Positions 24,615 to 44,013 of a stretch of DNA of 64,000 bases are shown here, in pieces (the stretch's first letter is position 1; each line of letters starts with the position of its first letter). The notes under the pieces are model-generated. The model ran no database searches. It was not told where the DNA came from and worked only from the letters and a program-made list of their open reading frames with translations. Origin of the DNA: an uncultured Methylobacter sp. (GTDB taxonomy: Bacteria; Pseudomonadota; Gammaproteobacteria; Methylococcales; Methylomonadaceae); assembly GCA_903832775.1 (NCBI GenBank), contig CAILCX010000100.1, forward strand, positions 41,937 to 105,936, in the 5' to 3' direction. The translations under genes were made by a program, and so were the position numbers.

Positions 24615-24622
24615 ACAACCTC

Positions 24623-25297: not shown

Positions 25298-25718
25298 GGC
25301 CGTGATACGCACCCTGCTCAGGTTCAAAAGGTAGTACCTCGTGCGAAACCAACAGACCCAAGCCTTCCAACATATGATCCAGTACATGATCAGTTAAAAA
25401 ACGTAGTTCACCGGGTAAAATTTGCAAGGCAATATGCCGGTTACCGAGGTGATAACAAGCTTTGGCAAATTGCAGGGTATCCGTGGTGCGAACTATAGAA
25501 AGCGATTCTGGCGCCGCCTCAATCCTAATGCAGTATTGGTCGGAACCGGTTAACAAAGAACCTTTACGTAATACTTGACCGCGCGGCATAAATAACCCGA
25601 TTTTGGTGCCGCTATCGGTTTTAAGTAACAAGCGGCTTTTCTGGCGCGATTCATACGGTAAGGTCACCACATCGTCAGGGATGGTCTCGGGTGCAGCCAA
25701 CTCAGTGAGTTTCAACAT
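25287..25718 (-). CDS. ureE: Urease nickel chaperone UreE
   Basis: [27 protein letters not shown]. Confidence 0.95.
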   Translation of the reverse strand: MLKLTELAAPETIPDDVVTLPYESRQKSRLLLKTDSGTKIGLFMPRGQVLRKGSLLTGSDQYCIRIEAAPESLSIVRTTDTLQFAKACYHLGNRHIALQILPGELRFLTDHVLDHMLEGLGLLVSHEVLPFEPEQGAYHGHGH

Positions 25719-25720
25719 GT

Positions 25721-27424: not shown

Positions 27425-27738
27425 TGCTTTTCCTCCAGCTCGCCCATCACTGCCTGACGAAATCCGTAAATTCTTTTTAAGCCGGCAAAGGCCACTAATT
27501 GCACTTCGCGTTGCTGTCCAGGTTCAAAGCGAACCGCTGTGCCCGCTGGAATATCGGGCCTAAATCCCCGGGTAACTGCACGATCAAACTGCAATGCGGG
27601 ATTGGTTTCAAAAAAATGGTAATGTGAACCCACTTGAACCGGTCGGTCGCCGCTATTTGCTACCACTACTTTAATGGTCTCGCGACCGGTATTTAGTTCC
27701 AAATCGCCGTCGGTGGTAATAATTTCTCCAGGTATCAT
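27421..27738 (-). CDS. ureB: Urease beta subunit
   Basis: [29 protein letters not shown]. Confidence 0.98.
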
Positions 27739-27747
27739 GGCAGTTCC

Positions 27748-28050
27748 CTATTCAATGGGATTATGAACAGTGACCAATTTGGTACCGTCAGGAAAAGTCG
27801 CTTCCACTTGTACATCCGGCAACATTTCCGCAATACCGTCCATCACATCATCACGGAACAGTAGCGTACGCCCAAACTCCATTAACTCGGCGACAGTACG
27901 TCCATCCCGGGCACCTTCCATAATTGCCGCACTGATGTAGGCTACGGCTTCGGGGTAATTAAGTTTCAAACCTCTGGCTTTACGACGCTCAGCCAGTAAA
28001 CCTGCAGTGAAAAGCAGCAGTTTATCTTTTTCTCTTGGTGTCAATTGCAT
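27748..28050 (-). CDS. ureA: Urease gamma subunit
   Basis: [12 protein letters not shown]...LNYPEAVA...[15 protein letters not shown]; ATG at 28050 gives 100 aa. Confidence 0.98.
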
Positions 28051-28075
28051 TGAGTTAGTCCAGTCGTGGTTCCAA

Positions 28076-28909
28076 TCAGGTTGCCCAAATACGTGGCGCA
28101 CAGGCTTTAATCAAGACAGTATCGGGTCGCACCAGCGTCCAGACCTGTTCAAAAAAACTGCGTAGTCGATCGCTACGGTCATCAACCGCCCTGCACACTA
28201 GCATATCATCAATACGGGTTACACCGCGTCCAGGTGAATCAGCGATTAGGCTTTGAATCGACGCCAATGTCTCAGCAGTTGCGGGACTGGCAAAAAAAGT
28301 TCCGCAAGCCGGAAATCCCTGCAAGCCCCAACGCGCAGAAAAGGCCTTTGCATCGATTTGTAAGCGCTCTAAAAACAAAGGCCGCTTGTCACAAAATATT
28401 TGCCAACTCATATCCGCCAGACCCGATGTAAAACCTTCGCCACTGGCAGGTCGACCTAAAGACAAAATTTCCCAGCCAATAAAACGGCCGCCCGTTTCAA
28501 GCTCTACTTTAACCACTGACTTTAAGTTGGCGCCTTCATAAATAATTGTTTCTTGCGGTAGCCATTCCAAGGCAGCATCTTTGGCAATTTTTATAGATAC
28601 TGACTGCATGGCCAACTTACCGGTACTGCGATAAAACTTTCCGGCAGCAGGCGTGGTAAGTAACGCATGACTGCATTCTGCCGCATTGATTAGAATACTT
28701 AAATTATCGCCTGCGACTATGCCGCCGGGCGGATGTAAAATATACACATGACAGACGCCACCTTCAGGATAAAACGGACGCTGTACTGTTAAAGGTCCTT
28801 TATGCTGACGTTTTACCAGCAAGGTCTTATGCTGGTTTGTTGCAAAGCCGAGTTCCAACTCGGCTTGCCAACCCTTCTGAATCTCCTTATTTAATCCCGA
28901 ATGAATCAA
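28076..28909 (-). CDS. ureD: Urease accessory protein UreD
   Basis: [33 protein letters not shown]. Confidence 0.96.
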
Positions 28910-28915
28910 TCTGTG

Positions 28916-29500
28916 TTACCCAGCCAACAAAACCACAAATGCCGTGGAGCAGGTTAATCCGAGGCTAATCCGAAGGACATTTAGCGTCTTGCCGCCCTGC
29001 AAACCGGCGACAAGTCCCAAGCCTTGCAAGTGGGCAGTGGCAAATAAAAAACCTAAGACATAAGTTATTTTGTCTGCGTCGATTGTGAGTTCTGAAGCAT
29101 GGACATAGCCATGACACAAAGCAATGGTAGCCACCATGCCAAGCGCTGTAAAAATTGAAGTTCGGAGGTTAAATCCCAGAATAAGTCCGAACGCCAACAG
29201 CGACAAGAGCACTCCTTGTTCGGCAATTTGCAATGTAAAGCCGAGAGCATTTAATCCGGCGCCAGCCGCCATCATGATTAAAAAAGTTAAGGGTAAAGCC
29301 CAAATCATTTTACCCGCCAATATAAAGCCCCACAGACCGATTGCCAAAATCACTAACAAATGATCAATTCCCTGCAAAGGATGTAAAAAACCATCGGCAA
29401 AGCCCTGCGCTGAGTTTGCGCCGGTATGGGCGAATACGGGACTGGCCAGAAATGAAAGCAATAGTCCCGTTAGTAAAGTTTTTATAGTGTGCCTAGTCAT
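28916..29500 (-). CDS. ureJ: HupE/UreJ family nickel transporter
   Basis: AHTG..., GFLHPLQGIDHL, HGYVHASE, multi-TM; ATG at 29500 with GGGAG RBS. Confidence 0.9.
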   Translation of the reverse strand: MTRHTIKTLLTGLLLSFLASPVFAHTGANSAQGFADGFLHPLQGIDHLLVILAIGLWGFILAGKMIWALPLTFLIMMAAGAGLNALGFTLQIAEQGVLLSLLAFGLILGFNLRTSIFTALGMVATIALCHGYVHASELTIDADKITYVLGFLFATAHLQGLGLVAGLQGGKTLNVLRISLGLTCSTAFVVLLAG

Positions 29501-29685
29501 AGTTACTATCTCCCTATTAATATTTAGAATCGAGCAACGGCCACGACCCATTATAACGATTGCGTTCTCAAACGAGTTTTAAATTCATTTGCCGGTAGAA
29601 TGAATCTTTAGTCATGGGTTGCGAGTTACCTTAACAGGTCGTAGCACGAAAATGGATTAAGCTTTAAACAGAATCGGAACGGACC

Positions 29686-30918
29686 TTAAATCTGCCATTG
29701 AAAACCAAGGTTCATGGCATTAACGTTGGCGCCTGTTGCTCCGGTTGTGTAATTCTGGCCTTTGGTCATCAAGTCGCCGTACAGCCAGCTCAGGGAAATC
29801 TTGGCATTATGGCCGTCAATAACATAGTTGACACCCGCTTCATAAACATCGCGGGACGAACTGCTGACCGGATGTACATCAACGTAACGCACAAAAGGTT
29901 GCGCCTGACCTATCCAGATTTTTTGCGGAAATAAATACATGCCGCTGACATCGTAAGCGTTGCCTTCAAACAAGGAAAATCCTGTGTTGGCTATTCTGGA
30001 AGCCATGTTGTAACCTGAAATGCCGTAGTTTTTATATTCTCCGTTTACAGTTACTACGCCGCTATTGGGCAATACTTTTTCCACCAACAGATCAACAGTC
30101 GTGCCACGAAAGCTTGCTGGATCAGCTGCAGAACCGGCGCCACCTTGCTGATACTGATTCGACAACCCGACAGTCAAAATATCGCCGCCTTTACCGAAAT
30201 AAGTCCCCGAGGTGTAATAGCCTGGATTTTTTTCTACTTCCCAAAAATTGTAGGCGACGCGCTGTCCATACAGAATGTTGTCATTGACGTTAGCACCACC
30301 TCTTAAACCTCTAAAGAAACCAAAGGCATATTGCAAACGACCACCCATAAACGCCCCCCAAACCGTGGCGCCATCGTCACGTCCCCTGGAACCGGCAGAG
30401 GTGCCGTCACTCTTTATGGTTCCGTTATAATCTGAAGGTTCAAACGGCGTTCCTGCTGAATAAATATTGTAAACACCACTGTAGTAAGGACCGTTCATTT
30501 CCCGACGTTCTGCGGGCACCAACATTCGACCTACCCATAAATTATACATGGGGTCGATTTCAAACTTGCCAATAGCATCCAATACCCTGACTTCGCCACC
30601 ATTGCCACAGGTTGGACATTCAGTATTAAACTCAACCTTTAAATATTTATGAATTTGGCCATTCAAGTACAAACGAATACTGTCCAGATTGAAATCATTA
30701 GTCCACCTTTTATCGCTTCCGGCACCCGCGGCTGCTTCTTGCGAAGAGAAACTGGTACGTAAGCCGGCCCCAATACTAACCCATTTGGTATCATCAATTT
30801 TAAAAGTCGCTCCTGCATAAGAATCGGTCATTTGACCCGCGGCCAATCCCGACAATAATGCCGTAGCGAGCAATCGATTTTTTCTAGCGCCTGCTTGATG
30901 TTGGATATAATCTTTCAT
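29686..30918 (-). CDS. Outer-membrane porin, short-chain amide/urea porin (FmdC-like)
   Basis: Signal peptide, alternating beta-strand pattern, C-terminal FQWQI, located between urt and ure genes. FmdC likeness is from recall. Confidence 0.78.
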   Translation of the reverse strand: MKDYIQHQAGARKNRLLATALLSGLAAGQMTDSYAGATFKIDDTKWVSIGAGLRTSFSSQEAAAGAGSDKRWTNDFNLDSIRLYLNGQIHKYLKVEFNTECPTCGNGGEVRVLDAIGKFEIDPMYNLWVGRMLVPAERREMNGPYYSGVYNIYSAGTPFEPSDYNGTIKSDGTSAGSRGRDDGATVWGAFMGGRLQYAFGFFRGLRGGANVNDNILYGQRVAYNFWEVEKNPGYYTSGTYFGKGGDILTVGLSNQYQQGGAGSAADPASFRGTTVDLLVEKVLPNSGVVTVNGEYKNYGISGYNMASRIANTGFSLFEGNAYDVSGMYLFPQKIWIGQAQPFVRYVDVHPVSSSSRDVYEAGVNYVIDGHNAKISLSWLYGDLMTKGQNYTTGATGANVNAMNLGFQWQI

Positions 30919-31018
30919 CTAAAGTCCCCTTGTTCATAAGCACAAATGTGAATGCATTTGCCCGAGAGCAAAGCCGCCAAAACTGGCAATCGTATTGTTC
31001 CGTTTACAGCCTATGCTT

Positions 31019-31056
31019 ACAATCCGTCAGATGACTCATCAGTCATTTGACGTATG
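31019..31056 (-). promoter_or_regulatory. Candidate operator copy A (tandem GTCA-N2-TGAC boxes) upstream of the porin-ureJ-ureDABCEFG unit
   Basis: ACAATCCGTCAGATGACTCATCAGTCATTTGACGTATG; 36/38 identical to 38779-38816. Confidence 0.8.
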
Positions 31057-31314: not shown

Positions 31315-31854
31315 CTATAAAACCGTCAAATCCTTGCTGCATTCGGTATGAATCAGATTACCGCTACGTTGCAGCATAAAATAGCCTCGAGTTAAGGCCT
31401 CTTTTTTGGCCTCGTCATTAATGTGAAATGAGGCAATTGCGCCATATTGTTTATAGTCTTTAAACCAAGGAAATAATTGTTTGAAATTGCGCATTTTCCG
31501 GTCCAATTTATCCAAATCATTGGTATGCGCTTTATATTTGACTTCTACAATGCCGACGACATTACCATTGGTCATAATAATGTCATATTCTTCTTCGGTT
31601 TTGCCGCGACGCTTATGACTGTTTTTCTCGATGTCGTCAAAGTGAATGTTACCTAAATGAGCGTCATTGGCTAAACTGTTAAAGAAAAATTCTTCGGCAA
31701 CTTCGCCTTGGTTATTGGTTACACTGCCCAAGGTAATACCGAGACGCTCCAACTTTTCATCAGTGCGCCTCATTTGTTCATCAGTACGATCTTGAGAAAC
31801 AGCGAGACTTGCCACTAACGCCTTTAATTCATCATCAGTCATTTTATGCTCCAA
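31315..31854 (-). CDS. Coiled-coil + PD-(D/E)XK-like protein (DUF3782-like)
   Basis: MTDDELKALVASLAVSQ coiled coil, then GEVAEEFF, EEYDII, IVEVKYK nuclease-like signature. Confidence 0.75.
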   Translation of the reverse strand: MEHKMTDDELKALVASLAVSQDRTDEQMRRTDEKLERLGITLGSVTNNQGEVAEEFFFNSLANDAHLGNIHFDDIEKNSHKRRGKTEEEYDIIMTNGNVVGIVEVKYKAHTNDLDKLDRKMRNFKQLFPWFKDYKQYGAIASFHINDEAKKEALTRGYFMLQRSGNLIHTECSKDLTVL

Positions 31855-31912: not shown

Positions 31913-32602
31913 TTAAACAGACAAATAAGCCTTAATCTTTGCCGCATCGACTTCGCCGCGCTTATCTTCATGAATAAACTTGCCTTTATCCATCACAATA
32001 ATGCGATCGGCCACTTCCATAGTAAAACTCAACACCTGCTCAGAGACGATAATGGTAATCTCGCGCATTTTTCTGATTTCATTTAAAACCTTGGCAATAT
32101 CTTTGATGATGGAAGGCTGAATGCCTTCGGTCGGCTCATCCAGCAATAAAACTTTAGGGTTGGTAACCAGGGCGCGCGCAATGGCCAATTGTTGTTGTTG
32201 ACCTCCGGAAAGGTTACCGCCCTTGCGCTTGCGCATGTCAAACAACACCGGAAACAAGGCGTAGATATCATCAGGAATTTCCAAGGATTTGGCTTTTTCC
32301 AGTCCTGTTTCTATATTTTCCTGCACGGTCATGGTCGGAAAAATCATCCGCCCTTGCGGAACATAAGCCAAGCCGCTGGCGACACGCTGATAGGTTGCTA
32401 CGTCCTGGAGATTAACGCCATCAACCTGCGCTTTAAAGGCTTTACTGGGCAGGATGCCCATCAGCGACTTGAACAAAGTCGTTTTACCCATGCCATTTCT
32501 ACCCATAATGGCCAGGGTTTCGTTTTTTTCGGCCTTAAAACTTAGCCCGTGAATCACTTGGCTTTGGCCATAACTGACTTGTAAATCTTCAATTTCAAAC
32601 AT
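31913..32602 (-). CDS. urtE: Urea ABC transporter ATP-binding subunit UrtE
   Basis: GRNGMGKT, LSGGQQQQL, LLDEPTEGIQPSII. Confidence 0.93.
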   Translation of the reverse strand: MFEIEDLQVSYGQSQVIHGLSFKAEKNETLAIMGRNGMGKTTLFKSLMGILPSKAFKAQVDGVNLQDVATYQRVASGLAYVPQGRMIFPTMTVQENIETGLEKAKSLEIPDDIYALFPVLFDMRKRKGGNLSGGQQQQLAIARALVTNPKVLLLDEPTEGIQPSIIKDIAKVLNEIRKMREITIIVSEQVLSFTMEVADRIIVMDKGKFIHEDKRGEVDAAKIKAYLSV

Positions 32603-32650
32603 GTTCTTATTCCTGTTATGTATTGATAAGCTATTGAACGATCAGCCAGA

Positions 32651-33394
32651 CTAATGTCCCAGATAAACTTCAATGACCTTTTCATCTGCCTGAATATGCT
32701 CCATAGAACCTTCGGCAAGGATTTTACCCTGATGCAGCACCGTGACTTTGTGTGCGATTTTTTTAACGAATTCCATGTCGTGCTCAATCACCAACACCGA
32801 GCGGTTTTGACAAATTCGCTTAAGTAACTCCGCCGTTTGATCGCGCTCCTTTACACTCATACCTGCAACCGGTTCATCCAGCATCAACAATTCCGGGTCT
32901 TGCATCAACAACATGCCAATCTCCAGCCATTGTTTTTGGCCATGACTAAGCAAAGCCGCTTCCATGTGTAACTGCTCGGTCAGTAATACTTCGGCTGCAA
33001 TTTTGTTGACTTGCTCACTCACCGCTGCGGTGCGTTTAAAGGTCAAACTGCCCCACACCGATCTTCCTACCGGATAAGACAATTCAAGATTCTGATATAC
33101 GCTTAGGTTTTCGTAAATTGAAGGCGTTTGAAATTTTCTGCCGACGCCGGCTCTAACAATCTCGTGCTCAGAGAGCATGGTCAGTTCTTGATTTTTAAAT
33201 TTGATGGAGCCTGAAGATGATTTTGTTTTTCCGCAAATCAAATCAAGGACAGTGGTCTTACCTGCGCCATTCGGCCCGATTACCACACGCAGTTCATTTT
33301 TATCGATATACAAAGTTAAGGCATCAACGGCTTTAAATCCGTCAAAAGAAACGGTCAAGTCTTCAAGCGCCAGGACAAAGTCAGTATTACTCAT
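32651..33394 (-). CDS. urtD: Urea ABC transporter ATP-binding subunit UrtD
   Basis: GPNGAGKT, GVGRKFQTP, LSHGQKQWLEIGM. Confidence 0.95.
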   Translation of the reverse strand: MSNTDFVLALEDLTVSFDGFKAVDALTLYIDKNELRVVIGPNGAGKTTVLDLICGKTKSSSGSIKFKNQELTMLSEHEIVRAGVGRKFQTPSIYENLSVYQNLELSYPVGRSVWGSLTFKRTAAVSEQVNKIAAEVLLTEQLHMEAALLSHGQKQWLEIGMLLMQDPELLMLDEPVAGMSVKERDQTAELLKRICQNRSVLVIEHDMEFVKKIAHKVTVLHQGKILAEGSMEHIQADEKVIEVYLGH

Positions 33395-34536
33395 GCTTTT
33401 TCTCCGATTAATTTGGCGACTTTTTTACCGGATTTCGCCAGGTAGCTGGAGACAAGTTCATTCACCTTGAATTGCTTAGCATATTTTTCATAGATTCCCG
33501 CCAAACCGTCAGGAAAAAACATCACCACCGCGATAAACAAGCCGCCCATTAAAAACAGCCACAACTCGGGAAAAGTCTCGGAGAACATGGTCTTGCCAAA
33601 GTTAACCAGTAACGTGCCATAAACCGCGCCGATCAGGGACATGCGTCCGCCCACCGCCGCAAAAATCACCATTTCAATTGAAGGAACAATCCCCACAAAA
33701 CTGGGTGACATAAAGCCGATTTGCAGCGTAAACATGGCTCCGCCAATTGCCGAGATCATCGCTGCAACACAGAATATAAATATCTTGAAATTAGAAACGT
33801 CATAACCCGAGAATCTGACCCGCTCTTCTTTATCGCGCATTGCCAGCAACAACATGCCGAATTTGGAGGTCAAAATGTAACGTGCCAATAACATGCAAGC
33901 GATTAACAAACCGGCATTGGTAAAATATAAAATGTATTTGGCACTGTCGGTTCTTATATCCCAGCCCAATAGCGTTTTTAAGTCGGTAATTCCGTTAACG
34001 CCACCGGTATAACCTTGCTGACCGACAATCAAAATACTTAAGATCAGGGCAATCGCCTGGGTAATAATCGCAAAATAAACCCCGCCTACTCGACGTTTAA
34101 ACATCGCATAGCCAATGATAAAAGCCAACAAAGTCGGAACCAGCAATACAAGTATCAGTGTTAAGGGCAAGCTTTTGAAGGGCTGCCAAAAAAAGGGAAT
34201 TTCCGTCAACTGATTCCAATCCATAAAATCAGGGATTCCGGGTGTTGTTTGGATTTTGGTACTGACCGGATCAGAAGCTTCAAGTTTGAGGAACATCGCC
34301 ATGCAATAACCGCCCAAACCAAAAAACATACCCTGGCCCAGGCTCAAAATACCGCCGTTGCCCCACAACAACACCAGACTAATGGCGACAAAAGCATAAG
34401 TGACATATTTACCCAAAAGTCCCAGTCGAAACAAATCCAGCCATAAAGGAAAGACCACAAAAAGCATTAGCGCCAGTATCGCCAAACCAACAGCGCCCTG
34501 CTTTCCACCTAACAATTTATCTGATAGCGTGTTCAT
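33391..34536 (-). CDS. urtC: Urea ABC transporter permease UrtC
   Basis: LSLGQGMFFGLGGY, GVYFAIITQA, SIEMVIFAAVGGR. Confidence 0.95.
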   Translation of the reverse strand: MNTLSDKLLGGKQGAVGLAILALMLFVVFPLWLDLFRLGLLGKYVTYAFVAISLVLLWGNGGILSLGQGMFFGLGGYCMAMFLKLEASDPVSTKIQTTPGIPDFMDWNQLTEIPFFWQPFKSLPLTLILVLLVPTLLAFIIGYAMFKRRVGGVYFAIITQAIALILSILIVGQQGYTGGVNGITDLKTLLGWDIRTDSAKYILYFTNAGLLIACMLLARYILTSKFGMLLLAMRDKEERVRFSGYDVSNFKIFIFCVAAMISAIGGAMFTLQIGFMSPSFVGIVPSIEMVIFAAVGGRMSLIGAVYGTLLVNFGKTMFSETFPELWLFLMGGLFIAVVMFFPDGLAGIYEKYAKQFKVNELVSSYLAKSGKKVAKLIGEKA

Positions 34537-34548
34537 TTTTATCTCCCT

Positions 34549-35466
34549 TTATTTACGCACTTTAGATGCAAACAAACCCTCGGGTCGCATCATCAAAATA
34601 ATTACAATCGTCATCAAGGTAGAGACTTTACCCATGGAACTGGTCATAAAAAACTGCAAAATCGATTGCGCCTGAGCGATGCCAAACGCTGAGGCAATGG
34701 TGCCCATCAAACTTGCCGCACCACCAAACACGACCACCATAAAACTATCAACAATATACAGCGAGCCTGTGGTCGGCCCCGTTGAGGAAATGGTGGTAAA
34801 TGCCGCTCCCGCAACCCCCGCAATACCACAGCCTAAAGCGAAGGTAAGCCGGTCGACTTTTTGGGTATTAATCCCGACAGCACCGGCCATAATCCGGTTT
34901 TGCATGGTTGCCCGAATACGCAAACCGCCTCTTGAACGAAACATAAAAAGATAAACGCCAACTGTAACTATCAAGGCCAAAACCATGACGAATACCCCGT
35001 TAATTGGAATATCAATATCAGGAGTTGGTTTAAACGAGCCGAGTAGCCATTCCGGTAATTCGGCACTGACTTCTTTGGCACCAAAAGTGGAACGAAATAT
35101 TTGTTGCATGACCAGACTTAAACCCCAGGTCGCAAGCAAAGTATCCAACGGACGTTTGTAAAGATGTCTGATCAACAAGTATTCAATGAAATAGCCTATA
35201 AAAAAGGCCAGGATGAATGCCGCAATAATGGCAAAAATAAAATAAGAATCAACGATCTCGTATTTGACCGCCAATTTTGACATGAACACCGTGGTATAGG
35301 CGCCTACCGTCATAAACTCACCATGAGCCATGTTGATCACGCCCATTTGACCAAAGATAATGGCAAGACCTAACGCCATCAGCAGCAATACACTAAACAG
35401 GCTCAATCCGGAAAAACCCTGCATCACCACAATGTTGCCTACTTCCTCCATCGTATATCCAAACAT
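34549..35466 (-). CDS. urtB: Urea ABC transporter permease UrtB
   Basis: GQMGVINMAHGEF, RPLDTLLATWGLSL, YIVDSFMVVVFGG. Confidence 0.95.
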   Translation of the reverse strand: MFGYTMEEVGNIVVMQGFSGLSLFSVLLLMALGLAIIFGQMGVINMAHGEFMTVGAYTTVFMSKLAVKYEIVDSYFIFAIIAAFILAFFIGYFIEYLLIRHLYKRPLDTLLATWGLSLVMQQIFRSTFGAKEVSAELPEWLLGSFKPTPDIDIPINGVFVMVLALIVTVGVYLFMFRSRGGLRIRATMQNRIMAGAVGINTQKVDRLTFALGCGIAGVAGAAFTTISSTGPTTGSLYIVDSFMVVVFGGAASLMGTIASAFGIAQAQSILQFFMTSSMGKVSTLMTIVIILMMRPEGLFASKVRK

Positions 35467-35518
35467 AACCAGCCTCCAGCTAACTCACTTCACTTACACA
35501 AAATTCAGGTTTTGCATC

Positions 35519-35552
35519 ACCATAGCAGCCTAAAAAACATGACTGCTATGGT
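35519..35552 (-). other. Intercistronic stem-loop after urtA
   Basis: ACCATAGCAG-N14-CTGCTATGGT, in the position typical of mRNA-stabilising hairpins after binding-protein genes. Confidence 0.55.
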
Positions 35553-35571
35553 TTGATTCAAGACTTATGAC

Positions 35572-36822
35572 TTATTGGTAACCTTTAGGAAATGGATCTG
35601 GAGCAATCAACTCAGACTCGTAAACCACATCCGCTTGCCCGTCTTTACGCCATTGACCAATACGTAACTTGCTAAACAAATGGTGGTTCGGATCAACCTT
35701 GACATAACCTTCAGGAGCAGTGGTTAACTCGTAACCGGGTAAGGCAACAACGGCTTTATCGACGTCAAAACTGCCTGCACGTTCAACTGCAGCTTTCCAT
35801 AACCAAGGTCCCAAATAGGCAGCTTGGGTTACGTCACCGATTACGGCAGCTTCGCCATAAGCCTTTTTAAATTCAGCTACAAATTTTTCGTTGTTAGGAT
35901 TTTTCAAACTTTGAAAATACTTCATGGCTGTATAGAAGCCTTCCAGGTTTTCGCCGCCAATACCCAATACTTCGTCTTCAGTAACTGAAATAGTCAGCAT
36001 GGTTTGTTTTTTAGCATTCAAACCGGCTGCATTCAATTGTTTAAACCAGGCAACATTACTGCCACCGACAACTGCGGCATAAATAACATCAGGTTTTTTT
36101 AGCTTGATTTTGTTAATCACAGAACCAAACTGCGTATCACCCAAAGCCACATATTCTTCGCCAACAACCTTGCCACCCAAGTGTTGTTCAATATGCTTAC
36201 GGGCGATTTTCATGGAGGTACGTGGCCAAATATAATCTGAACCAATCAGATAATAGGTTTTTGCCTTTTTCTCTTTTGCTATCCAATCCAAACCGGCAAG
36301 AATTTGTTGGGTAGCTTCCTGTCCTGTGTAAAACACGTTTTTGGATTGTTCCAGACCTTCATAAAAGGTAGGATAAAACAACAAACCGTTGTCTTTTTCA
36401 AAGACGGGAAGTGCGGCTTTTCGTGAGGCCGAAGTCCAACAGCCAAATACCGCAGCTACCTTGTCATTTTCCAACAGTTTTTTCGATTTTTCGGCAAAGG
36501 TAGGCCAGTCGCTGGCGCCATCTTCCTGAATCACTTCAATCTTTCTGCCCAGAATACCGCCCATTTCATTAATCTGGGCAATTGCCAGCTTTTCAGCCTG
36601 AATGGAACCTGTTTCACTGATGGCCATTGTGCCGGTTGCTGAATGAAGAATACCGACAGTTACCGACGTGTCAGTAACCGCAAGCCCAGTTGTATTAACG
36701 ACTGCCGTTGGAAAATCTGCTGCAGTCGCATTATTTATGCCTAACGAAAGACCCAAGGCAAGCGATATGCCCGCGACAACGGCGCTTTTTTTAGCAAACT
36801 GACTTTTATAAATGTTACCCAT
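35572..36822 (-). CDS. urtA: Urea/short-chain amide ABC transporter substrate-binding protein UrtA
   Basis: GILHSATGTMAISE, EDGASDWPTFAEK, FGCWTSASRK, YPTFYEG, GSDYIWPR. Confidence 0.96.
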   Translation of the reverse strand: MGNIYKSQFAKKSAVVAGISLALGLSLGINNATAADFPTAVVNTTGLAVTDTSVTVGILHSATGTMAISETGSIQAEKLAIAQINEMGGILGRKIEVIQEDGASDWPTFAEKSKKLLENDKVAAVFGCWTSASRKAALPVFEKDNGLLFYPTFYEGLEQSKNVFYTGQEATQQILAGLDWIAKEKKAKTYYLIGSDYIWPRTSMKIARKHIEQHLGGKVVGEEYVALGDTQFGSVINKIKLKKPDVIYAAVVGGSNVAWFKQLNAAGLNAKKQTMLTISVTEDEVLGIGGENLEGFYTAMKYFQSLKNPNNEKFVAEFKKAYGEAAVIGDVTQAAYLGPWLWKAAVERAGSFDVDKAVVALPGYELTTAPEGYVKVDPNHHLFSKLRIGQWRKDGQADVVYESELIAPDPFPKGYQ

Positions 36823-37014
36823 TAGTTTCTCCTAATTAAAAAAATCAAACACACTCAACATTCATTCCCTAAACTGACAACATCCTGCATAACTCAACAC
36901 CTACTTAAAATGCTTACCTCTTTAAAAATGATCATGGGATTTGGCGGGCTATAATCGCCAAAAGTTTAATTACTCAGAATGAATCAATTCGCCCCTTCAG
37001 TACTTTCATTAATT

Positions 37015-37359
37015 TCAATGCCCCAACATCCAGGGCCTTGCTGTTTTCCTGGTTTGCATCTGAAAGCCATTCCCCGCTTGCTCCTGGTTTTTGACTTGTT
37101 CTGTTTTAGTGCTACAAGTATGACCACCGGTACAGCCGCAACTGGATCGGCGAGCTGTTCTTGGCTCATGAGCTGACTTTTCATTTCGCTCATGAGCCAT
37201 GCGCAGGGACTGGCCCAAAAGCGCATAATTTGGCACTGAAATCAAACGGTTACTAATTCCTCCACAGTTGTCACAAAATGCCGGCATGCTTGCTTCACTC
37301 ATCTTTCTGAGTGAAGTAAAAGGGCCACAATCATTACAGCGATATTCATATAAAGGCAT
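37015..37359 (-). CDS. fmdB: FmdB-family zinc-ribbon protein
   Basis: MPLYEYRCNDCG...CDNCG, directly downstream of formamidase. Confidence 0.88.
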   Translation of the reverse strand: MPLYEYRCNDCGPFTSLRKMSEASMPAFCDNCGGISNRLISVPNYALLGQSLRMAHERNEKSAHEPRTARRSSCGCTGGHTCSTKTEQVKNQEQAGNGFQMQTRKTARPWMLGH

Positions 37360-37387
37360 ACGCCCAACTCCTTTTTACAGTGTTCAA

Positions 37388-38611
37388 TTAGCTGGTTTTT
37401 GCCATATCGGTACTGCCGGAAATAATTATCTTGGGACCTTCAGCGTTGGGTTTTAAATCAAAATCAAAGATTTCTGTCGGTAGCCATAGCGTTGCACAAG
37501 CATTGGGTATATCGACAACACCACTGATATGACCTTCCACCGGCGCTGTGCCTAAAATTGACAAAGCCTGGGCGCCGCTGTAACCAAATTTTTTCAGGTA
37601 TTCAATTGCGTTTAAACAAGCCTGGCGGTAAGCGACATGAACATCCAGATAATGCTGTATGCCCTGTTCATCAACAGAAATACCCTCAAAAATAATATAA
37701 TCACGATACGAAGGCGTTAAGGGACTTGGCTGGAAGATTGGGTTTTTGATGCCATATTTCTTGACACCGTCTTTAATCAGGCTGACTTTAATATCCAGAT
37801 AACCGGCCATTTCAATAGCGCCACAAAAAGTAATCTCGCCATCGCCTTGTGAAAAATGCAGGTCGCCCATGGAAAGGCCGCCATCTTTGACGTAAACAGG
37901 GAAAAATACTTTCGAGCCTTTGGTAAGATTTTTAATGTCACAATTTCCGCCATGTTCACGCGGCGGAACTGTTCGGGCGCCTTCTGCGGCAGCCGCTTTG
38001 GCTGCATCACCGGTCAGTTTGCCCATTACCGCAGACTGCGGATTGGGCGGCAGTGCCAAGGCCGGAACCCGTTCGGGATCAGTAGCAATCAGATCGGCTT
38101 CCCGTTGATTCCATTTTTCCAGGAGCTCCCGTGAAGGCAAACAGCCAATCAGGCCAGGATGCATAATGCCTGCAAATTTAACATTGGGAATATGTCTTGA
38201 GGTGGTGTAAATTCCGTGAAAATCCCAGATCGATTTACGTGCCTCGGGATAATGATCGGTCAGGAAGCCGCCGCCATTTTCTCTTGAAAACAAGCCATTA
38301 AAGCCCCATTGCTGATCATCGAAAGTACCTACGTCAAGAATGTCGACCACCATCAGATCGCCAGGTTCAGCGCCCTCAACACCGATGGGCCCGCTCAGAT
38401 AATGCACTTGCGTTAAATCCACATCACGTACATCATTAGCACTATCGTTGTTGCCGATTTGACCACCGGTCCAGTCCATGCATTCCACACGGAACTCATC
38501 GCCCGGTTTGACCATTGCCACCATAGGCAGATCGGGGTGCCAGCGATTGTGAATCAGGCCGTCCTGTTCCCAGGGTTTTTTATCAAGATCCAATTTAATT
38601 AACGTTTTCAT
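37388..38611 (-). CDS. fmdA: Formamidase (acetamidase/formamidase family)
   Basis: HNRWHPD, HYLSGPI, PPREHGGNCDIK, GDLHFSQGDGEITFCGAIE. Confidence 0.96.
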   Translation of the reverse strand: MKTLIKLDLDKKPWEQDGLIHNRWHPDLPMVAMVKPGDEFRVECMDWTGGQIGNNDSANDVRDVDLTQVHYLSGPIGVEGAEPGDLMVVDILDVGTFDDQQWGFNGLFSRENGGGFLTDHYPEARKSIWDFHGIYTTSRHIPNVKFAGIMHPGLIGCLPSRELLEKWNQREADLIATDPERVPALALPPNPQSAVMGKLTGDAAKAAAAEGARTVPPREHGGNCDIKNLTKGSKVFFPVYVKDGGLSMGDLHFSQGDGEITFCGAIEMAGYLDIKVSLIKDGVKKYGIKNPIFQPSPLTPSYRDYIIFEGISVDEQGIQHYLDVHVAYRQACLNAIEYLKKFGYSGAQALSILGTAPVEGHISGVVDIPNACATLWLPTEIFDFDLKPNAEGPKIIISGSTDMAKTS

Positions 38612-38676: not shown

Positions 38677-38778
38677 TTACAGTCTCCCTCGCTCAAAAAA
38701 CCAAATGTAAAAGTATTCGCAGTAAAGTGTCGCTGCGAAAACTGGCGTGATTAATTATTTGATTTTCGGCCACTCTGC

Positions 38779-38816
38779 ACAATCCGTCATATAACTCATC
38801 AGTCATTTGACGTATG
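38779..38816. promoter_or_regulatory. Candidate operator copy B between fmdA and the divergent hypothetical/HK/RR unit
   Basis: ACAATCCGTCATATAACTCATCAGTCATTTGACGTATG; 36/38 identical to 31019-31056. Confidence 0.8.
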
Positions 38817-38870: not shown

Positions 38871-39629
38871 ATGAACAGGTTTCATATACAGACAAACTAT
38901 GCCGTGTTCGGTTTACTGTTTTTTAGTGGTCTGGTTTGTCCTGCAATGGCTGCAGAACTAAAGCCTGAGAACATTGCTAAAGCGGAAATTAGCGCAATAC
39001 AGTTTAGTCTTGTCGATGACAATCTTGACCAGTTTGGCTTCGGTCTTTCTTCCAGTTTGATAACTGAACGGGTGAGCAAGAATCTGGCTGAATGGCACTA
39101 TCCAGTCAAGCTTAACGAAACCGGCTATTCCCATATACTTGAAGCGACACTGGGTAGAATTGTGAATGAGGAAACGCCGACTGGCTTTTCTTACAGCAGC
39201 GGCAACTCTGATCCCCGCTCGCCCCAATTTCAAAAGGCCAATGTTTTACCTATCAGCTGTCGCTTAAAAAAAGTCGGTAGCAAAGACACTAACGCGGAAA
39301 ATAAGATGACTTTTAGTGTCTATCAACTTTCTGGCGGCTTTAGCCAGACTAAGGTCGCTGACAAGTTGGTAGATCAGATCAGTACTGCTTGCCTTAGTTT
39401 GTTGGAAGAGTTGAAACTACCCACGGCAGGAAACACAACGGACAGCAGCACCTTCAAACCAACCTGGATGCCTGAGTTACGGGTCGAAGTCAAGCAAGTC
39501 CCGGAACCTGCAGATCCTAAAAATACCAAGCCCTCTGTTACTGAAAGTAACGATAATGGCCGTAAACAGATTATCATCTACAACCAAGGTTCACCGCTGA
39601 CTATTGATTTTGGTCATGTGCGACGTTAA
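38871..39629 (+). CDS. Exported hypothetical protein
   Basis: GGAG RBS, signal peptide (…CPAMAAE), 252 aa, no family recognised. Confidence 0.78.
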   Translation: MNRFHIQTNYAVFGLLFFSGLVCPAMAAELKPENIAKAEISAIQFSLVDDNLDQFGFGLSSSLITERVSKNLAEWHYPVKLNETGYSHILEATLGRIVNEETPTGFSYSSGNSDPRSPQFQKANVLPISCRLKKVGSKDTNAENKMTFSVYQLSGGFSQTKVADKLVDQISTACLSLLEELKLPTAGNTTDSSTFKPTWMPELRVEVKQVPEPADPKNTKPSVTESNDNGRKQIIIYNQGSPLTIDFGHVRR

Positions 39630-39701: not shown

Positions 39702-42700
39702 GTGAAAGCTAAAATCCACCAAAACATCGAAAAGATTCGTCGCGACTATAACGCGCTGGTGGCCAATGAAACCATGGAAGACTATGCCTTACGCTACGCA
39801 CCGCGCAGTTTCCGAAAATGGTCAGAGTTTGAGGTCGCCAACACCGCGTTTGGCTCTACCTCCTTTCTGGTGCTGGAAGCCATTGGCGGCTTTCTGTCGA
39901 TCAACTATGGTTTTACCAACGCTTTTTGGGCAATTCTGATTGCCGCTGTGGTGATCTTTATTACCAGTCTGCCGATCAGTTATTACGCCGCCCGCTACCA
40001 TATTGATATTGATTTGCTAACCCGTAGCGCGGGGTTTGGTTACATTGGTTCCACCGTCACATCCCTGATTTATGCCTCCTACACTTTCACGCTGTTCGCG
40101 CTGGAAGCCTCGATCATGTCACTGGCGATTGAGCTGTATTTCCATATCTCGTTACCGATTGCCTATGTGATCAGCGCTGTACTTGTCATACCTTTGGTAA
40201 CTTTCGGTATAACCACTATCAGCCGCATGCAGTTATGGACTCAGCCCTTATGGCTGATTATGTTAATTGCACCTTATGTAGCCGTTGCAATGCGCGAACC
40301 CGAAGCGATGCCCATCTTACAAACCTATTTTTGGTTTGCAGGCACCGGACAAGGTTTTGACTGGCTGTTATTCGGGGCCGCGTCCACAGTGGCTTTCTCA
40401 ATGATGGCGCAAATCGGCGAGCAGGTGGATTTTTTACGTTTTATGCCGGAAAAAACCCAGTCAAACAAGTATCGCTGGTGGCTTGCGATGCTGGCAGGCG
40501 GACCGGGCTGGATTGTATTTGGTGCAACCAGACAATTGCTGGGAGCTTTGTTGGCACATTTGGCGGTACGCAATGGAATCAGCCCAGAGCATGCCCATGA
40601 ACCTACGCAAATGTATTTGACTGCCTATAATCAGCTTTTCGACAATCCTCAATGGGCCTTGGCCGCTACCACACTGTTTGTCATTCTCAGTCAGATTAAA
40701 ATCAATGTGACCAATGCTTATGCCGGCTCGTTGGCCTGGTCTAATTTCTTTTCGCGACTGACGCATAGTCATCCGGGACGGGTGGTCTGGTTGTTTTTTA
40801 ATGTCATGATTGCGTTGTTGCTGATGGAATTTGGCGTTTTTGGTGCCCTGGAAAAAGTGTTGGGTTTGTTTTCCCATTTGTCGATAGCCTGGATCAGCAC
40901 CATTGCCGCCGAATTAATGATCAACAAACCCTTAGGTTTAAGTCCTAAAATAGTCGAATTCAAGCGTGCCTACCTGCCTGACCTGAATCCGGTCGGCATT
41001 TTATCTACCTTTTTCGCGTCTTTATTGTCGATAATGGCTTACTTGGGGCTTTTTGGCGAATTACCCAAAGCCTTTTCGGCGTTTATTTCCCTGGGCCTGG
41101 CTTTTATGCTGACACCCGCGATTGCCTGGCTTAGTCGCGGCAAACATTATCTGGCACGTAAGCGCGATGAGAATAACCAGAAATCACACAGCAAATGCAC
41201 CATTTGTGAAAACGACTTCGAACACGAAGACATGGCCTATTGCCCGGCCTATGCCGATAGCATCTGCTCGCTGTGTTGCACACTGGATGCGCGTTGCCTT
41301 GATGCCTGCAAGGTTGGTTTTCGTTTCGATGATTATCTGGAGGATATCGCTACACGCTTCCTGCCAGCAAAAATGACCATGACTTCCCGCTTGCGCTTTT
41401 TACGTTTTGCCCTGATGTTCACCTTTCTCTCTGCGTTGACCGGGATTTTTGTCAGTATCATTTATTATCAGGATTTATTAAGCGTTGAACACAACTACCA
41501 CGCTTTTAATTTATTGCTATACAACTTTTTCAAAGTTTATGCGGCTTTACTGGTTTTCATCGGTTTATGTACCTGGTGGCTGGTCTTGAATGACGAAAGC
41601 CGACGCGTTGCCCAGGAAGAAATTGCCAAACAAACTCAGCGACTGGTAATGGAAATTGCCGAACATAAAAGAACCGATGCCAAATTACAGCAAGCCACTA
41701 AAATGGCAGATCGTGCCAACAGCGCTAAAAGCCGTTTTTTAAGCAGTATGAGCCACGAAATACGAACCCCCTTAAACAGTATTGTCGGTTACGCCTATAT
41801 TCTGCAAAAAGATCCGACCATCCCGGCACATCGAAAACAAGCCGTCGATATTTTGAAACGGAGCGGCGAACATTTATCCTCATTGATTGAAGATATTCTC
41901 GACATTGCTCGTATCGAGGCGCGTAAATTTGAGCTGCGGCAAGAGCCAATTGATTTTCCGAATTTTATTGAACATCTGGTCAATATCTTCAAGCCGCAAG
42001 CGGAAGCAAAAGGCTTATCCTTTTACTGCCAGATTCTCAACACACTGCCTCAGCGGGTTCGAGGAGATGAAAAGCGGGTCGGGCAAATACTCATCAACCT
42101 GCTTGGCAATGCAATTAAATTTACTACGACTGGCGAGATCGTTTTTCGTATTGGTTACAGTTGTGGCGTAACGACTTTTCAGGTGGTCGATACCGGTCCC
42201 GGCATCCATGAAGATCAACTGCAAAATATTTTTCAGCCTTTCACTCAATTACCCAACGAGAATTTAGGTTCGGGAAGCGGACTTGGACTTACCATCAGTA
42301 AAATCCTGTCCGAAATCATGGGTGGTGAACTGGCTGTGATTAGCGTTCCTGATCAGGGTTCTACGTTTACCGTACGCTTGTTGTTGCCGAACCTTGGGGG
42401 CGAGCAACAATACCTTCAGGAAGAAGATATAACCGGCTATGAGGGCCGTCGTCAAAAAATATTGATTGTCGATGATCAACCGGAACATCGGCATTTAGTA
42501 ATGTCTATTTTGGCCCCCCTGGGCTTTATTGTTATTGAGGCCTGTAGCGGCGAAGCGTGTCTGGTTCAAGTACAGCAGCAGTTGCCGGATCTCATTTTGC
42601 TGGATTTATCCATGCCTGGACTTGATGGTACTGAAACGGCCCGTCAACTTCGCCAGCAAGGCTATGCAACGCCAATTGTGGTATTGAGCGCAAATGCTTA

Positions 42701-43079
42701 TCCGACTGACCGGCTCAATGCGATCAATGCCGGCTGTAACGATTTTCTGGCCAAACCTATTCAAGTTAATGAATTACTTTCCAAGCTTAAGCTGCATCTG
42801 GCGTTGGACTGGCTTTATCAAGATCAGACTGCGCAAAATAAGCCTGAATCTCTGGATAATTTTCAACTGCCACCTGCGCAGATTGTCGAAGATTTGACCG
42901 CTTACGTAAGGATAGGCGATGTTTTCGGACTTAATCAATCGTTGTCAGAGCTGATCCAACAGCATCCTGAATACACTTGTTTTGCGGAAAAAATCATCAC
43001 ATTGGCCAGGGAATTTCGTCTGGTTGAAATAAAAAAACTGTTACACATTGCCAGTGAAGAGCTTGCTAAAAATGATTAA
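39702..43079 (+). CDS. Hybrid histidine kinase with N-terminal NCS1/cytosine-permease-like transporter domain and Cys-rich linker
   Basis: About 12 hydrophobic segments in the first ~480 aa, 8-Cys cluster, two more TMs, MSHEIRTPLN H-box, NLLGNAIKFT / DTGPGI / GSGLGL, REC (IVDD, LLDLSMP, AKP); GTG start. Confidence 0.9.
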   Translation: MKAKIHQNIEKIRRDYNALVANETMEDYALRYAPRSFRKWSEFEVANTAFGSTSFLVLEAIGGFLSINYGFTNAFWAILIAAVVIFITSLPISYYAARYHIDIDLLTRSAGFGYIGSTVTSLIYASYTFTLFALEASIMSLAIELYFHISLPIAYVISAVLVIPLVTFGITTISRMQLWTQPLWLIMLIAPYVAVAMREPEAMPILQTYFWFAGTGQGFDWLLFGAASTVAFSMMAQIGEQVDFLRFMPEKTQSNKYRWWLAMLAGGPGWIVFGATRQLLGALLAHLAVRNGISPEHAHEPTQMYLTAYNQLFDNPQWALAATTLFVILSQIKINVTNAYAGSLAWSNFFSRLTHSHPGRVVWLFFNVMIALLLMEFGVFGALEKVLGLFSHLSIAWISTIAAELMINKPLGLSPKIVEFKRAYLPDLNPVGILSTFFASLLSIMAYLGLFGELPKAFSAFISLGLAFMLTPAIAWLSRGKHYLARKRDENNQKSHSKCTICENDFEHEDMAYCPAYADSICSLCCTLDARCLDACKVGFRFDDYLEDIATRFLPAKMTMTSRLRFLRFALMFTFLSALTGIFVSIIYYQDLLSVEHNYHAFNLLLYNFFKVYAALLVFIGLCTWWLVLNDESRRVAQEEIAKQTQRLVMEIAEHKRTDAKLQQATKMADRANSAKSRFLSSMSHEIRTPLNSIVGYAYILQKDPTIPAHRKQAVDILKRSGEHLSSLIEDILDIARIEARKFELRQEPIDFPNFIEHLVNIFKPQAEAKGLSFYCQILNTLPQRVRGDEKRVGQILINLLGNAIKFTTTGEIVFRIGYSCGVTTFQVVDTGPGIHEDQLQNIFQPFTQLPNENLGSGSGLGLTISKILSEIMGGELAVISVPDQGSTFTVRLLLPNLGGEQQYLQEEDITGYEGRRQKILIVDDQPEHRHLVMSILAPLGFIVIEACSGEACLVQVQQQLPDLILLDLSMPGLDGTETARQLRQQGYATPIVVLSANAYPTDRLNAINAGCNDFLAKPIQVNELLSKLKLHLALDWLYQDQTAQNKPESLDNFQLPPAQIVEDLTAYVRIGDVFGLNQSLSELIQQHPEYTCFAEKIITLAREFRLVEIKKLLHIASEELAKND

Positions 43080-44013
43080 TAAATCTATTCAAAGTAACGG
43101 TATCGTGATGATTGTCGATGACACTCCCGGCAATCTGGCGTTGTTGTCTGATACGCTTTCAGAAGCGGGTTACCGCGTCCTGGTTGCAACTGACGGGCAA
43201 TCGGCTCTGGAACAAATTTCCTTTTTAAAACCGGATATCATTTTGCTGGACGTTATGATGCCGGGTATTGATGGTTTTGAAACCTGCAATCAACTTAAAA
43301 CAAATCCTGAAACAGCTCATATCCCGGTATTATTTATGACAGCATTAAACGAGCTGGATAATTTGTTACGTGGCTTTGAAGAGGGCGCTGTAGATTATCT
43401 TGTGAAACCGATACGTCCTCCTGAAGTTCTGGCCAGAGTGGATATCCAGCTCACGCAGTCCCGCAATCTGCAACGCGCTGAAAATGCACTACTTAACAGT
43501 TCTTTCACTGCGTTGGTAATCGACTTTAACGGAGTGATAACCTGGTTAACCCCCGGTGGCAAAGCCTGGCTTGACGATTTTATGCAAAAACATATACTGG
43601 CCGGCCAAACTGAAGTGGGTTCGGTGTTGCCTAAACCATTACTGGATTGGGTTACGCAACAAAACGCAGTTGCTGATAAATCGCTAGGGACGGTTTTTGA
43701 AAGTCACCGCAAGGGTGTCGATTTTTCGGCAAAAATATCACCTTGCCAAAACACCGGTGAATATTTGCTGGTCATGGAAAAACATTCAGGTGAATGGGAT
43801 CTTGAATCGGTTAAAAGCAGCTTGGGGCTTACTTTTCGTGAAGCCGAAATTCTTATGTGGATTTCCCGAGGTAAAACCAATAAAGAAGCGGGCATCATTT
43901 TGGGTAGTAGTCCGCGTACCATTAACAAACATCTTGAACATATTTTTGAGAAACTGGGTGTCGTTACACGTGCTGCTGCGGTTTCAATGGTATTGCAACG
44001 GACTTCAGGTTAA
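43072..44013 (+). CDS. Response regulator, REC + LuxR-type HTH
   Basis: IVDD, LLDVMMPG, VKP; LTFREAEILMWISRGKTNKE..LGSSPRTINKHLEHIFEKLGV; ATG at 43072 overlaps the kinase stop. Confidence 0.93.
   Translation: MINKSIQSNGIVMIVDDTPGNLALLSDTLSEAGYRVLVATDGQSALEQISFLKPDIILLDVMMPGIDGFETCNQLKTNPETAHIPVLFMTALNELDNLLRGFEEGAVDYLVKPIRPPEVLARVDIQLTQSRNLQRAENALLNSSFTALVIDFNGVITWLTPGGKAWLDDFMQKHILAGQTEVGSVLPKPLLDWVTQQNAVADKSLGTVFESHRKGVDFSAKISPCQNTGEYLLVMEKHSGEWDLESVKSSLGLTFREAEILMWISRGKTNKEAGIILGSSPRTINKHLEHIFEKLGVVTRAAAVSMVLQRTSG

Follow-up and report, generated by a model that had tools for sequence, protein, structure and literature searches.

Transporter-fused sensor kinases are already known from bacteria. 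In CrbS/CrbR of Vibrio and Pseudomonas (also MxtR/ErdR), which constitutes the acetate switch, an input domain of the LeuT fold is joined to a hybrid HisKA-HATPase-REC kinase, no histidine phosphotransfer (Hpt) protein is known, and the partner CrbR, a receiver (REC)-LuxR regulator, recognizes a defined DNA motif and thereby switches on an operon for nutrient uptake and catabolism (PMC5436829, PMC5715377). Here, a locus of similar plan was analyzed in a stretch of 64,000 nucleotides (nt) from an uncultured Methylobacter sp., a methanotroph of the Methylococcales (GenBank assembly GCA_903832775.1, contig CAILCX010000100.1, positions 41,937 to 105,936; this whole stretch is hereafter the window). 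It comprises the gene of a hybrid sensor histidine kinase and an overlapping gene for a REC-PAS-LuxR regulator, and the two probably act as a two-component system that switches on the scavenging of nitrogen from urea and short amides. What is new here is the input, a permease-like domain derived from the NCS1 family, together with a module of eight cysteines (Cys8) and a transmembrane (TM) hairpin.

The initial annotation of the window, made from the sequence alone, had described a class parallel to the SLC5-type kinases CbrA and CrbS. The overall plan was upheld, with a transporter-fold input in one chain with a HisKA/HATPase core as in the SLC5/STAC kinases, while the transporter family and the coupling module were found to differ. 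CrbS carries an SLC5/SSS domain with STAC and PAS domains and targets acs, whereas the present kinase combines the NCS1-derived domain, the Cys8 module, and a TM hairpin leading into the dimerization and histidine phosphotransfer (DHp) helices, and is linked to urea and amide genes; its regulator has an extra PAS domain compared with CrbR. No SLC5/SSS or STAC domain of Pfam was found in the kinase, where the Cys8 module and two TM helices occupy the place of STAC. CbrA/CbrB of Pseudomonas is likewise a transporter-kinase fusion with a LeuT-fold sensor, and the lysine in the Na2 site of CbrA may parallel K333 of the window kinase, but CbrA has SLC5 and STAC domains, is non-hybrid, and has an NtrC-type partner, and both its histidine ligand and its transport have been demonstrated (PMC7096432; PMC13022988). 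Among plain transporters, Mhp1 (hydantoin; 2jln) and CodB (cytosine; 7qoa) share the 12-TM LeuT fold, the N-terminal and TM3 motifs, and the polar TN motif of TM8 (PMC9379551), whereas the window domain is ~17% identical to them, falls below the PF02133 threshold, has no aligned aromatic sandwich, and carries the extra Cys8 module and fused signaling outputs. Ks-Amt5 of Kuenenia also uses a nitrogen-compound transporter module as the fused input of a histidine kinase, but with the Amt/Rh rather than the LeuT fold and with other output partners (PMC5764959). Finally, AmiC/AmiR of Pseudomonas aeruginosa resembles the locus in its amidase genes linked to an ATP-binding cassette (ABC)-type amide transporter and in its response to short amides, but it relies on a soluble sensor resembling periplasmic binding proteins and on an RNA antiterminator, with neither a kinase nor a membrane sensor (as summarized in PMC13209695). 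No AmiC or AmiR homologue was seen in the window locus.

The kinase and its partner were divided into the following features (window coordinates):

39702-43079, forward strand: hybrid sensor histidine kinase gene (P0001), translated from a GTG start into 1125 amino acids (aa)
39702-41141, forward strand: N-terminal 12-TM NCS1-like (LeuT-fold) permease domain, residues 1-480, from structure prediction, Foldseek, and hhalign
41184-41321, forward strand: Cys8 module, residues ~495-540, predicted cytoplasmic, recognized by cysteine invariance
41397-41594, forward strand: TM13-TM14 hairpin, residues ~566-631, from hydropathy peaks
41595-42386, forward strand: coiled coil with the HisKA (H685) and HATPase_c core, from Pfam and the H-box
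42459-42788, forward strand: kinase receiver domain, from Pfam Response_reg
42819-43079, forward strand: C-terminal tail of 85 aa, residues 1040-1125, helical, weakly conserved, not an Hpt
43072-44013 (reading frame 43048-44013), forward strand: response regulator of 313 aa, REC-PAS-LuxR (helix-turn-helix), from Pfam and Foldseek

A record identical to the 1125-aa kinase was present in the protein collection searched, and its nearest homologues came from Methylobacter, Methylomonas, and Methylovulum. The first ~480 residues had been described as a permease-like multi-TM domain fused in frame to two more TM helices, HisKA, an intact HATPase, and REC, and each part was recovered: twelve long helices at residues ~40-480 in the structural model, hydrophobic helices at ~566-589 and ~601-631 by hydropathy, and HisKA (675-740), HATPase_c (788-895), and Response_reg (920-1029; 5e-28) in Pfam. 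The protein is a hybrid histidine kinase by its H-box SHEIRTPLN with His685 (sequence inspection), by the nucleotide-binding motifs DTGPGI and GSGLGL (DxGxG/GxGxG) in the translated HATPase_c, and by a receiver with the acceptor Asp968 and the acidic pocket D924/D925. Asp968 and the Ser/Thr and Lys of the receiver were kept across 68 full-length homologues. The best NCBIfam similarity of the core was to hybrid kinases of the TorS/ArcB/BarA type, under the cut-offs. The permease domain includes a conserved N-terminal segment, RRDYN...EDYALR, predicted to be cytoplasmic, and the count of 12 + 2 helices places both the Cys8 module and the kinase in the cytoplasm. No HAMP or PAS domain was found with Pfam between TM14 and HisKA; the TM13-TM14 hairpin brings the chain back to the cytoplasm and passes directly into the coiled coil and DHp.

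The regulator belongs to the NarL/FixJ (LuxR-type) group by its Response_reg (2.1e-29) and GerE (5.1e-13) matches in Pfam. With its likely ATG start at 43072, the gene shares 8 nt with the end of the kinase gene (stop codon TAA, 43077-43079), which agrees with the overlap of kinase and REC-LuxR genes reported in the initial annotation and from which translational coupling of the two is predicted. A regulator was co-located with the kinase in 63 of 80 homologous loci. Its middle domain (43441-43833) had no Pfam match, while an AlphaFold2 (AF2) model with a predicted local distance difference test score (pLDDT) of 74 displayed a beta2-alpha-beta3 layout, and the top 50 Foldseek matches were all PAS domains (FixL, DosP, PYP, Aer2). 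Such a domain was present in 54 of the 63 co-located regulators, the Pseudomonas orthologues being short (221-233 aa) and without it, and it could serve as a second input or as a dimerization module.

The link of this pair to urea and amide metabolism was apparent from the surrounding genes, in which the following features were distinguished:

31913-38611, reverse strand: presumed target operon 1, with fmdA (37388-38611), the Zn-ribbon gene fmdB (37015-37359), and urtA-E (31913-36822), from NCBIfam and Pfam
24003-30918, reverse strand: presumed target operon 2, with a porin-like gene (29686-30918) and ureA, ureB, ureC, ureE, and ureG, from NCBIfam
38871-39629, forward strand: orf252, a 252-aa protein with a Sec-type signal peptide, from translation, between the shared promoter region and the kinase
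38754-38816, no strand assigned: promoter element copy 1, in the divergent intergenic region between fmdA and orf252-kinase, carrying GTCATTTGAC, a direct repeat
30994-31056, no strand assigned: promoter element copy 2, upstream of the porin-urease unit, carrying GTCAGATGAC and GTCATTTGAC, a direct repeat

The kinase gene is oriented divergently from fmdA-fmdB-urtABCDE, downstream of which the porin-like gene and the urease genes follow. FmdA scored 792.6 bits, UrtA-E all exceeded their NCBIfam cut-offs, and fmdB corresponded to Zn_ribbon_8 of Pfam. Reading frames at the usual positions of ureD and ureF gave no match at E<=1e-10, and no purine or pyrimidine catabolic genes were found in the locus. 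A survey of gene neighborhoods among homologues had been proposed along with the initial annotation, and it was carried out here on the 80 homologous loci, drawn from Proteobacteria, Cyanobacteria, and Myxococcota, by tblastn with the window proteins over a 10-kb range. Genes for fmdA were found in 32 loci, UrtA-like genes in 50, and urease genes in 13, so that 61 of the 80 carried at least one; many of the 19 others were short contigs. The UrtA-like genes fell into two classes, one 71-92% identical to that of the window and accompanied by fmdA, the other 36-45% identical and without fmdA. In a FastTree phylogeny of the N-terminal domain, the sequences outside the Methylococcales separated into two clades, one of urea context (18 of 22 rows) and one of amide context (32 of 34 rows). 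The context label changed 6-8 times on the tree, compared with ~20 times when shuffled, and none of 500 shuffles was as low. Both clades included Comamonadaceae and Oxalobacteraceae, and one metagenome-assembled genome holds one copy of each (L067, L073).

Co-occurrence was also observed at the level of genomes. Among 41 Methylococcales genomes, a UrtA above the curated cut-off was present in all eight that encode this type of kinase and in only one of the 33 that do not (Fisher p = 9e-8), and in four of them kinase and urtA were divergent neighbors within 3.4 kb. The window genome was the only one of the 41 with fmdA. Its UrtA, the sole one of the genome, scored 518 bits and is of the fmdA-linked type, compared with 562-584 bits for the UrtA of kinase-bearing relatives. 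The cassette beside the sensor seems to have been exchanged, with fmdA and amide-type urt genes where relatives have true urt genes, and urease is presumably supplied by this one Urt system as well.

A shared sequence element precedes both presumed target operons. The two promoter elements are 78% identical over 63 nt, and the palindrome GTCA-N2-TGAC, found upstream of each operon, is present at four sites in the window, where 0.68 would be expected; three of the four lie within the duplicated elements. Across the 80 loci, 18 of 28 exact matches were located in the 1 kb upstream of the kinase, a region that makes up 5.4% of the sequence (p = 1e-16), and the matches included Pseudomonas, Burkholderiales, Nevskia, and Spongiibacteraceae. 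The obvious reading of this enrichment is that GTCA-N2-TGAC is a candidate binding site of the LuxR-type regulator.

An AF2 model of residues 1-545 of the kinase, built from 46 sequences taken from homologous loci, had a mean pLDDT of 78.7 and a predicted template-modeling score of 0.82. Foldseek returned 63 PDB matches at E<=0.001, and all 50 of the matches listed (E<=7.4e-4) were LeuT-fold transporters. The five best belonged to NCS1, namely Mhp1 (E 1.4e-8) and CodB (TM-score 0.76-0.78 on the target, 17% identity), followed by structures of the SSS (SiaT, NIS, SMCT1), Nramp, and APC families. When the family alignment was compared by hhalign with canonical PF02133 permeases (three of four obtained from a class-wide sample), a probability of 95.9% and an E-value of 6.1e-9 were obtained over 382 columns, and the NCS1 signatures EDxxxP..RxW at the N-terminus and FGxxGS in TM3 were aligned. 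On the grounds of the Foldseek ranking and this profile-profile match, the domain is, by model and alignment, a remote relative of NCS1 beyond a mere look-alike. Direct searches gave less: the window protein had no match to PF02133 (gathering score 23.5 bits) even at E<=10, one of ten relatives reached E 0.0014, a few stand-alone relatives have a precomputed match, and neither single-sequence nor profile searches of PDB sequences returned anything significant for the domain. Homologues carry the IMG label 'purine-cytosine permease-like', and canonical PF02133 permeases were absent from the same genome (E<=1e-5) and from 40 relatives. An N-terminal domain that fails to model as a LeuT-fold permease had been named in the initial annotation as a refuting outcome, and residues 1-545 did model as one. 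The NCS1-like assignment was supported by the structural matches, with Mhp1 and CodB as the best, and by hhalign, and the Pfam part of the check suggested with it gave no match.

The predicted pocket differs from that of known NCS1 members. In NCS1, the ring of the substrate is sandwiched between a TM3 tryptophan and a TM6 phenylalanine or tryptophan, a pair kept across the whole family (PMC9379551). By hhalign, L131 and S233 of the window domain fall in the corresponding columns, an assignment that depends on the alignment since F129 and F132 flank the TM3 column. Mhp1 Q121 was aligned to the family-invariant E135, and T337 and N338 to the T-N pair of NCS1 TM8, with the preceding Ser/Thr opposite either V336 or a 3-residue gap and the invariant K333 nearby. 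Altogether, family-invariant polar residues were found on TM1, TM3, TM6, and TM8 (E59, E135, Q237, E240, Q241, D243, K333, N335, T337, N338), and it is these four helices that make up the pocket in the LeuT fold. Such a pocket would suit a small polar molecule rather than a nucleobase, and a nucleobase or breakdown product is an unlikely ligand because the aromatic sandwich of NCS1 is not conserved. Of the ligands that the initial annotation had put forward, urea and formamide gained support from the 80-locus neighborhoods, the UrtA co-occurrence, and the palindrome. Separately, a loop after TM8, FF-R-THSHPGR (window 40746-40781, residues 349-360), was invariant in both fused and stand-alone forms and is predicted to be cytoplasmic; this THSHPGR loop, with its two histidines, may work together with the Cys8 module.

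The Cys8 module, described in the initial annotation as an 8-Cys linker, turned out not to be a fusion linker. Its cysteines (C499, 502, 514, 522, 525, 526, 532, 536) were all invariant in 46 sequences, and stand-alone relatives of ~550 aa without a kinase end just after the same cluster, which makes Cys8 part of the permease module. In the PDB searches, this part resembled two zinc fingers, a TRIM29 B-box (E 1.4) and a C1 domain (E 3.5), both non-significantly, and residues 467-683 had only weak, chance-level Pfam matches. The module probably binds metal. The family is large, with 1,673 cluster representatives at 50% identity and more than 600 matching stretches in species-representative genomes. 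Its C-terminal partners vary, including a hybrid kinase, a hybrid kinase with Hpt, GAF/PAS-GGDEF-EAL, or nothing, and the stand-alone permease-Cys8 proteins are common in Actinobacteria and Alicyclobacillus. Three stand-alone loci were examined, and in all three the gene lies in an amidase operon:

L086 9483-11109; L087 8644-11688; L088 5519-10328: stand-alone loci of Amycolatopsis, Nocardia, and Alicyclobacillus, with amidase-signature enzymes nearest the AtzE family

Two of these amidases are followed by a 64-aa open reading frame reminiscent of AtzG, BiuH/RutB-like cysteine hydrolases or a CN-hydrolase are encoded alongside, and the regulators are of the GntR type in L086 and L087 and of the LysR type in the third. 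As all enzyme assignments were below curated cut-offs, only amide hydrolysis can be assigned safely to these operons. They nevertheless suggest that the permease-Cys8 module originally served amide uptake, and there are hints of a biuret- or ureide-like substrate in the amidase-linked branch.

Two further permease-Cys8 paralogues were found in the genome of the window, 52% identical to the window domain and with all key residues kept, including Cys8. One (L093 7741-9951, at the end of contig C69) continues into a PAS domain and runs off the contig. The other, of 1271 aa, is a GAF-GGDEF-EAL protein divided between L095 9407-10189 and L094 10935-7765 (contigs C93/C201), whose ends overlap by 46 identical residues, and it adjoins PhoD and glycerophosphodiesterase genes. 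A tentative generalization, which we regard as doubtful, is that the permease-Cys8 unit represents an unrecognized branch of NCS1/APC for small acyclic amides (urea, formamide, biuret-like compounds), whose free-standing members would be importers of amidase operons and whose fused members would be true transceptors, able both to transport and to report the substrate and coupled through a cytoplasmic two-metal Cys8 module. If so, one module would serve three outputs in this genome, namely the kinase for formamidase, urea uptake, and urease, and two cyclic di-GMP/PAS proteins, and the availability of urea and amides would set both nitrogen scavenging and lifestyle signaling.

For the kinase-regulator pair, the proposed mechanism would proceed in four steps. 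Urea and/or formamide would bind the central pocket of the NCS1-derived 12-TM domain, lined by the invariant polar residues. The domain would then rock in the manner of LeuT transporters, and the Cys8 module, the TM13-TM14 hairpin, or both would convey this motion to the coiled coil and DHp, altering autophosphorylation of H685. The phosphoryl group would next arrive at the regulator. The regulator would bind GTCA-N2-TGAC and activate fmdA-fmdB-urtABCDE and the porin-urease unit, and probably its own operon.

Several observations weigh against a urea/amide switch of this kind. No Pfam or NCBIfam model matched the N-terminal domain of the kinase beyond chance level, even at E<=10, and the pocket was predicted from a single AF2 model together with sequences aligned by hhalign at about 17-22% identity. 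The two context clades, urea and amide, are cleanly told apart at only five positions (L141Y, M248L, A262G, F506Y, R565G), which are scattered and show no clustering on the pocket helices; as they are few and unclustered, the sequences give no sign of clade-specific ligand tuning. Within the Methylococcales, near-identical sensors are found beside either true urt genes or fmdA with amide-type urt genes, and the paralogues of the same genome, with every key residue, feed PAS or GAF-GGDEF-EAL outputs away from nitrogen genes. Because the clades differ little and the paralogues keep the key residues, the module may be broadly amide-specific or may sense something else, such as a signal common to both pathways. 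An Hpt is fused after REC in some relatives (P0143, P0155, P0166), from which it follows that some members of the family employ a multi-step relay. Additionally, a literature search returned no functional study of the permease-Cys8 family and no ligand-binding, transport, or phosphotransfer data for its members.

The route by which the phosphoryl group would reach the regulator had been left open in the initial annotation, in which no Hpt was recognized in the locus. Scans of the contig and of the kinase tail were both empty, in agreement with this: the 99-residue C-terminal segment that covers the tail had no Hpt match (Pfam PF01627, E<=10), and the five Hpt matches of the genome were all on contigs other than that of the window. 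The tail was also considered as a degenerate Hpt and rejected, as it had no Pfam match and no conserved histidine among 68 homologues, and the TorS alignment stops at residue 1040. CrbS is likewise a hybrid kinase that is paired with a LuxR-type regulator and for which no Hpt is known. In this kinase, deletion of the receiver or mutation of its Asp keeps signaling and raises early expression, and direct transfer with the receiver as a sink was proposed by the authors (PMC5436829). By analogy, phosphoryl transfer may run directly from the histidine to the regulator, with the kinase REC as a modulator or phosphate sink; the chances of this are about even. A four-step phosphorelay, from H685 to D968, an unlinked Hpt protein, and the regulator, is possible though on the unlikely side: it would account for the complete and conserved acceptor site of the kinase REC, could draw on five Hpt-containing reading frames elsewhere in the genome (two of them short, 255 and 283 aa), and is in line with the Hpt fused after REC in some family members, but an Hpt is missing from both the contig and the tail, the kinase and regulator genes are translationally coupled, and in CrbS/CrbR the REC and its Asp are dispensable and negative in effect.

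What the input domain reports is likewise subject to alternatives. As a true transceptor, it would translocate urea or short amides, perhaps coupled to protons with K333 replacing Na+ at Na2, and the kinase would report flux instead of occupancy alone. The stand-alone relatives do look like working permeases in amidase operons, the fused domain has the same invariant core residues, and CbrA both transports histidine and signals (PMC7096432), with a lysine in its Na2 site (PMC13022988). Translocation is nonetheless rather improbable here, considering that a high-affinity ABC importer of the Urt type and a porin are already available from the same locus, that Ks-Amt5 binds without translocating (PMC5764959), that transport and signaling appear uncoupled in CbrA (PMC7096432), and that the K333/Na2 assignment depends on an alignment with a 3-residue gap. 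A different signal would be a nucleobase or ureide, a metal or redox cue received through Cys8 (for example, nickel for urease), or ammonium as the product, in which case the gene linkage would reflect a shared nitrogen-scavenging regulon. The nearest solved relatives do carry cytosine and hydantoins, the eight invariant cysteines and the invariant THSHPGR loop could bind metal, and neither the likeness of the pocket residues in the urea and amide clades nor the position of the paralogues away from nitrogen genes would be surprising. The probability of such a signal is nevertheless low, given that the ring-sandwich aromatics of NCS1 align with L131 and S233, that purine and pyrimidine catabolic genes are missing from the locus, that the stand-alone forms accompany amidases needing no nickel, and that a scavenging pathway would hardly be expected to be induced by its own product. 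The tight genomic coupling with urtABCDE would also fit a kinase that does not itself bind the ligand and instead monitors the Urt ABC transporter or ligand-loaded UrtA, as BceS or PhoR rely on transporters, but we consider this very improbable: 10 of the 13 urease-bearing loci had no urt gene within 10 kb, the stand-alone permeases and GGDEF-EAL fusions have no Urt partner nearby, and a fully conserved transporter pocket would be needless.

A switch that responds to urea or short amides would be of wider relevance, as soils, waters, and hosts all offer these compounds as major sources of nitrogen. UreR is a dedicated bacterial urea sensor, and dedicated urea or amide sensors of bacteria are known in few forms only, such as UreR and AmiC/AmiR. 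The family described here would give a membrane sensor for urea and amides to Proteobacteria, Cyanobacteria, and Myxococcota, among them methanotrophs, in which methane oxidation is shaped by the supply of nitrogen. It would also mean that a LeuT-fold transporter has independently become the input of a kinase for a second time, here with a coupling device other than STAC, and comparison with the STAC kinases could show how the motion of a transporter becomes a kinase signal. The family is a convenient experimental system for this, since it includes paired urea- and amide-context paralogues, stand-alone permeases, and alternative outputs.

Two small reading frames of the locus were also recorded. 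Between urtE and the porin promoter element, a 179-aa open reading frame (window 31315-31854) displayed a weak match to PD-(D/E)XK nucleases (E 0.003) and had no homologue in the 80 related loci. The orf252 product had no Pfam or NCBIfam match, and its homologues occurred only beside the kinase and only in Methylococcales (nine of the 80 loci). In Pseudomonas, CbrA binds a small peptide encoded just upstream of cbrA (PMC13022988). In the window, orf252 is probably the first gene of the sensor operon.

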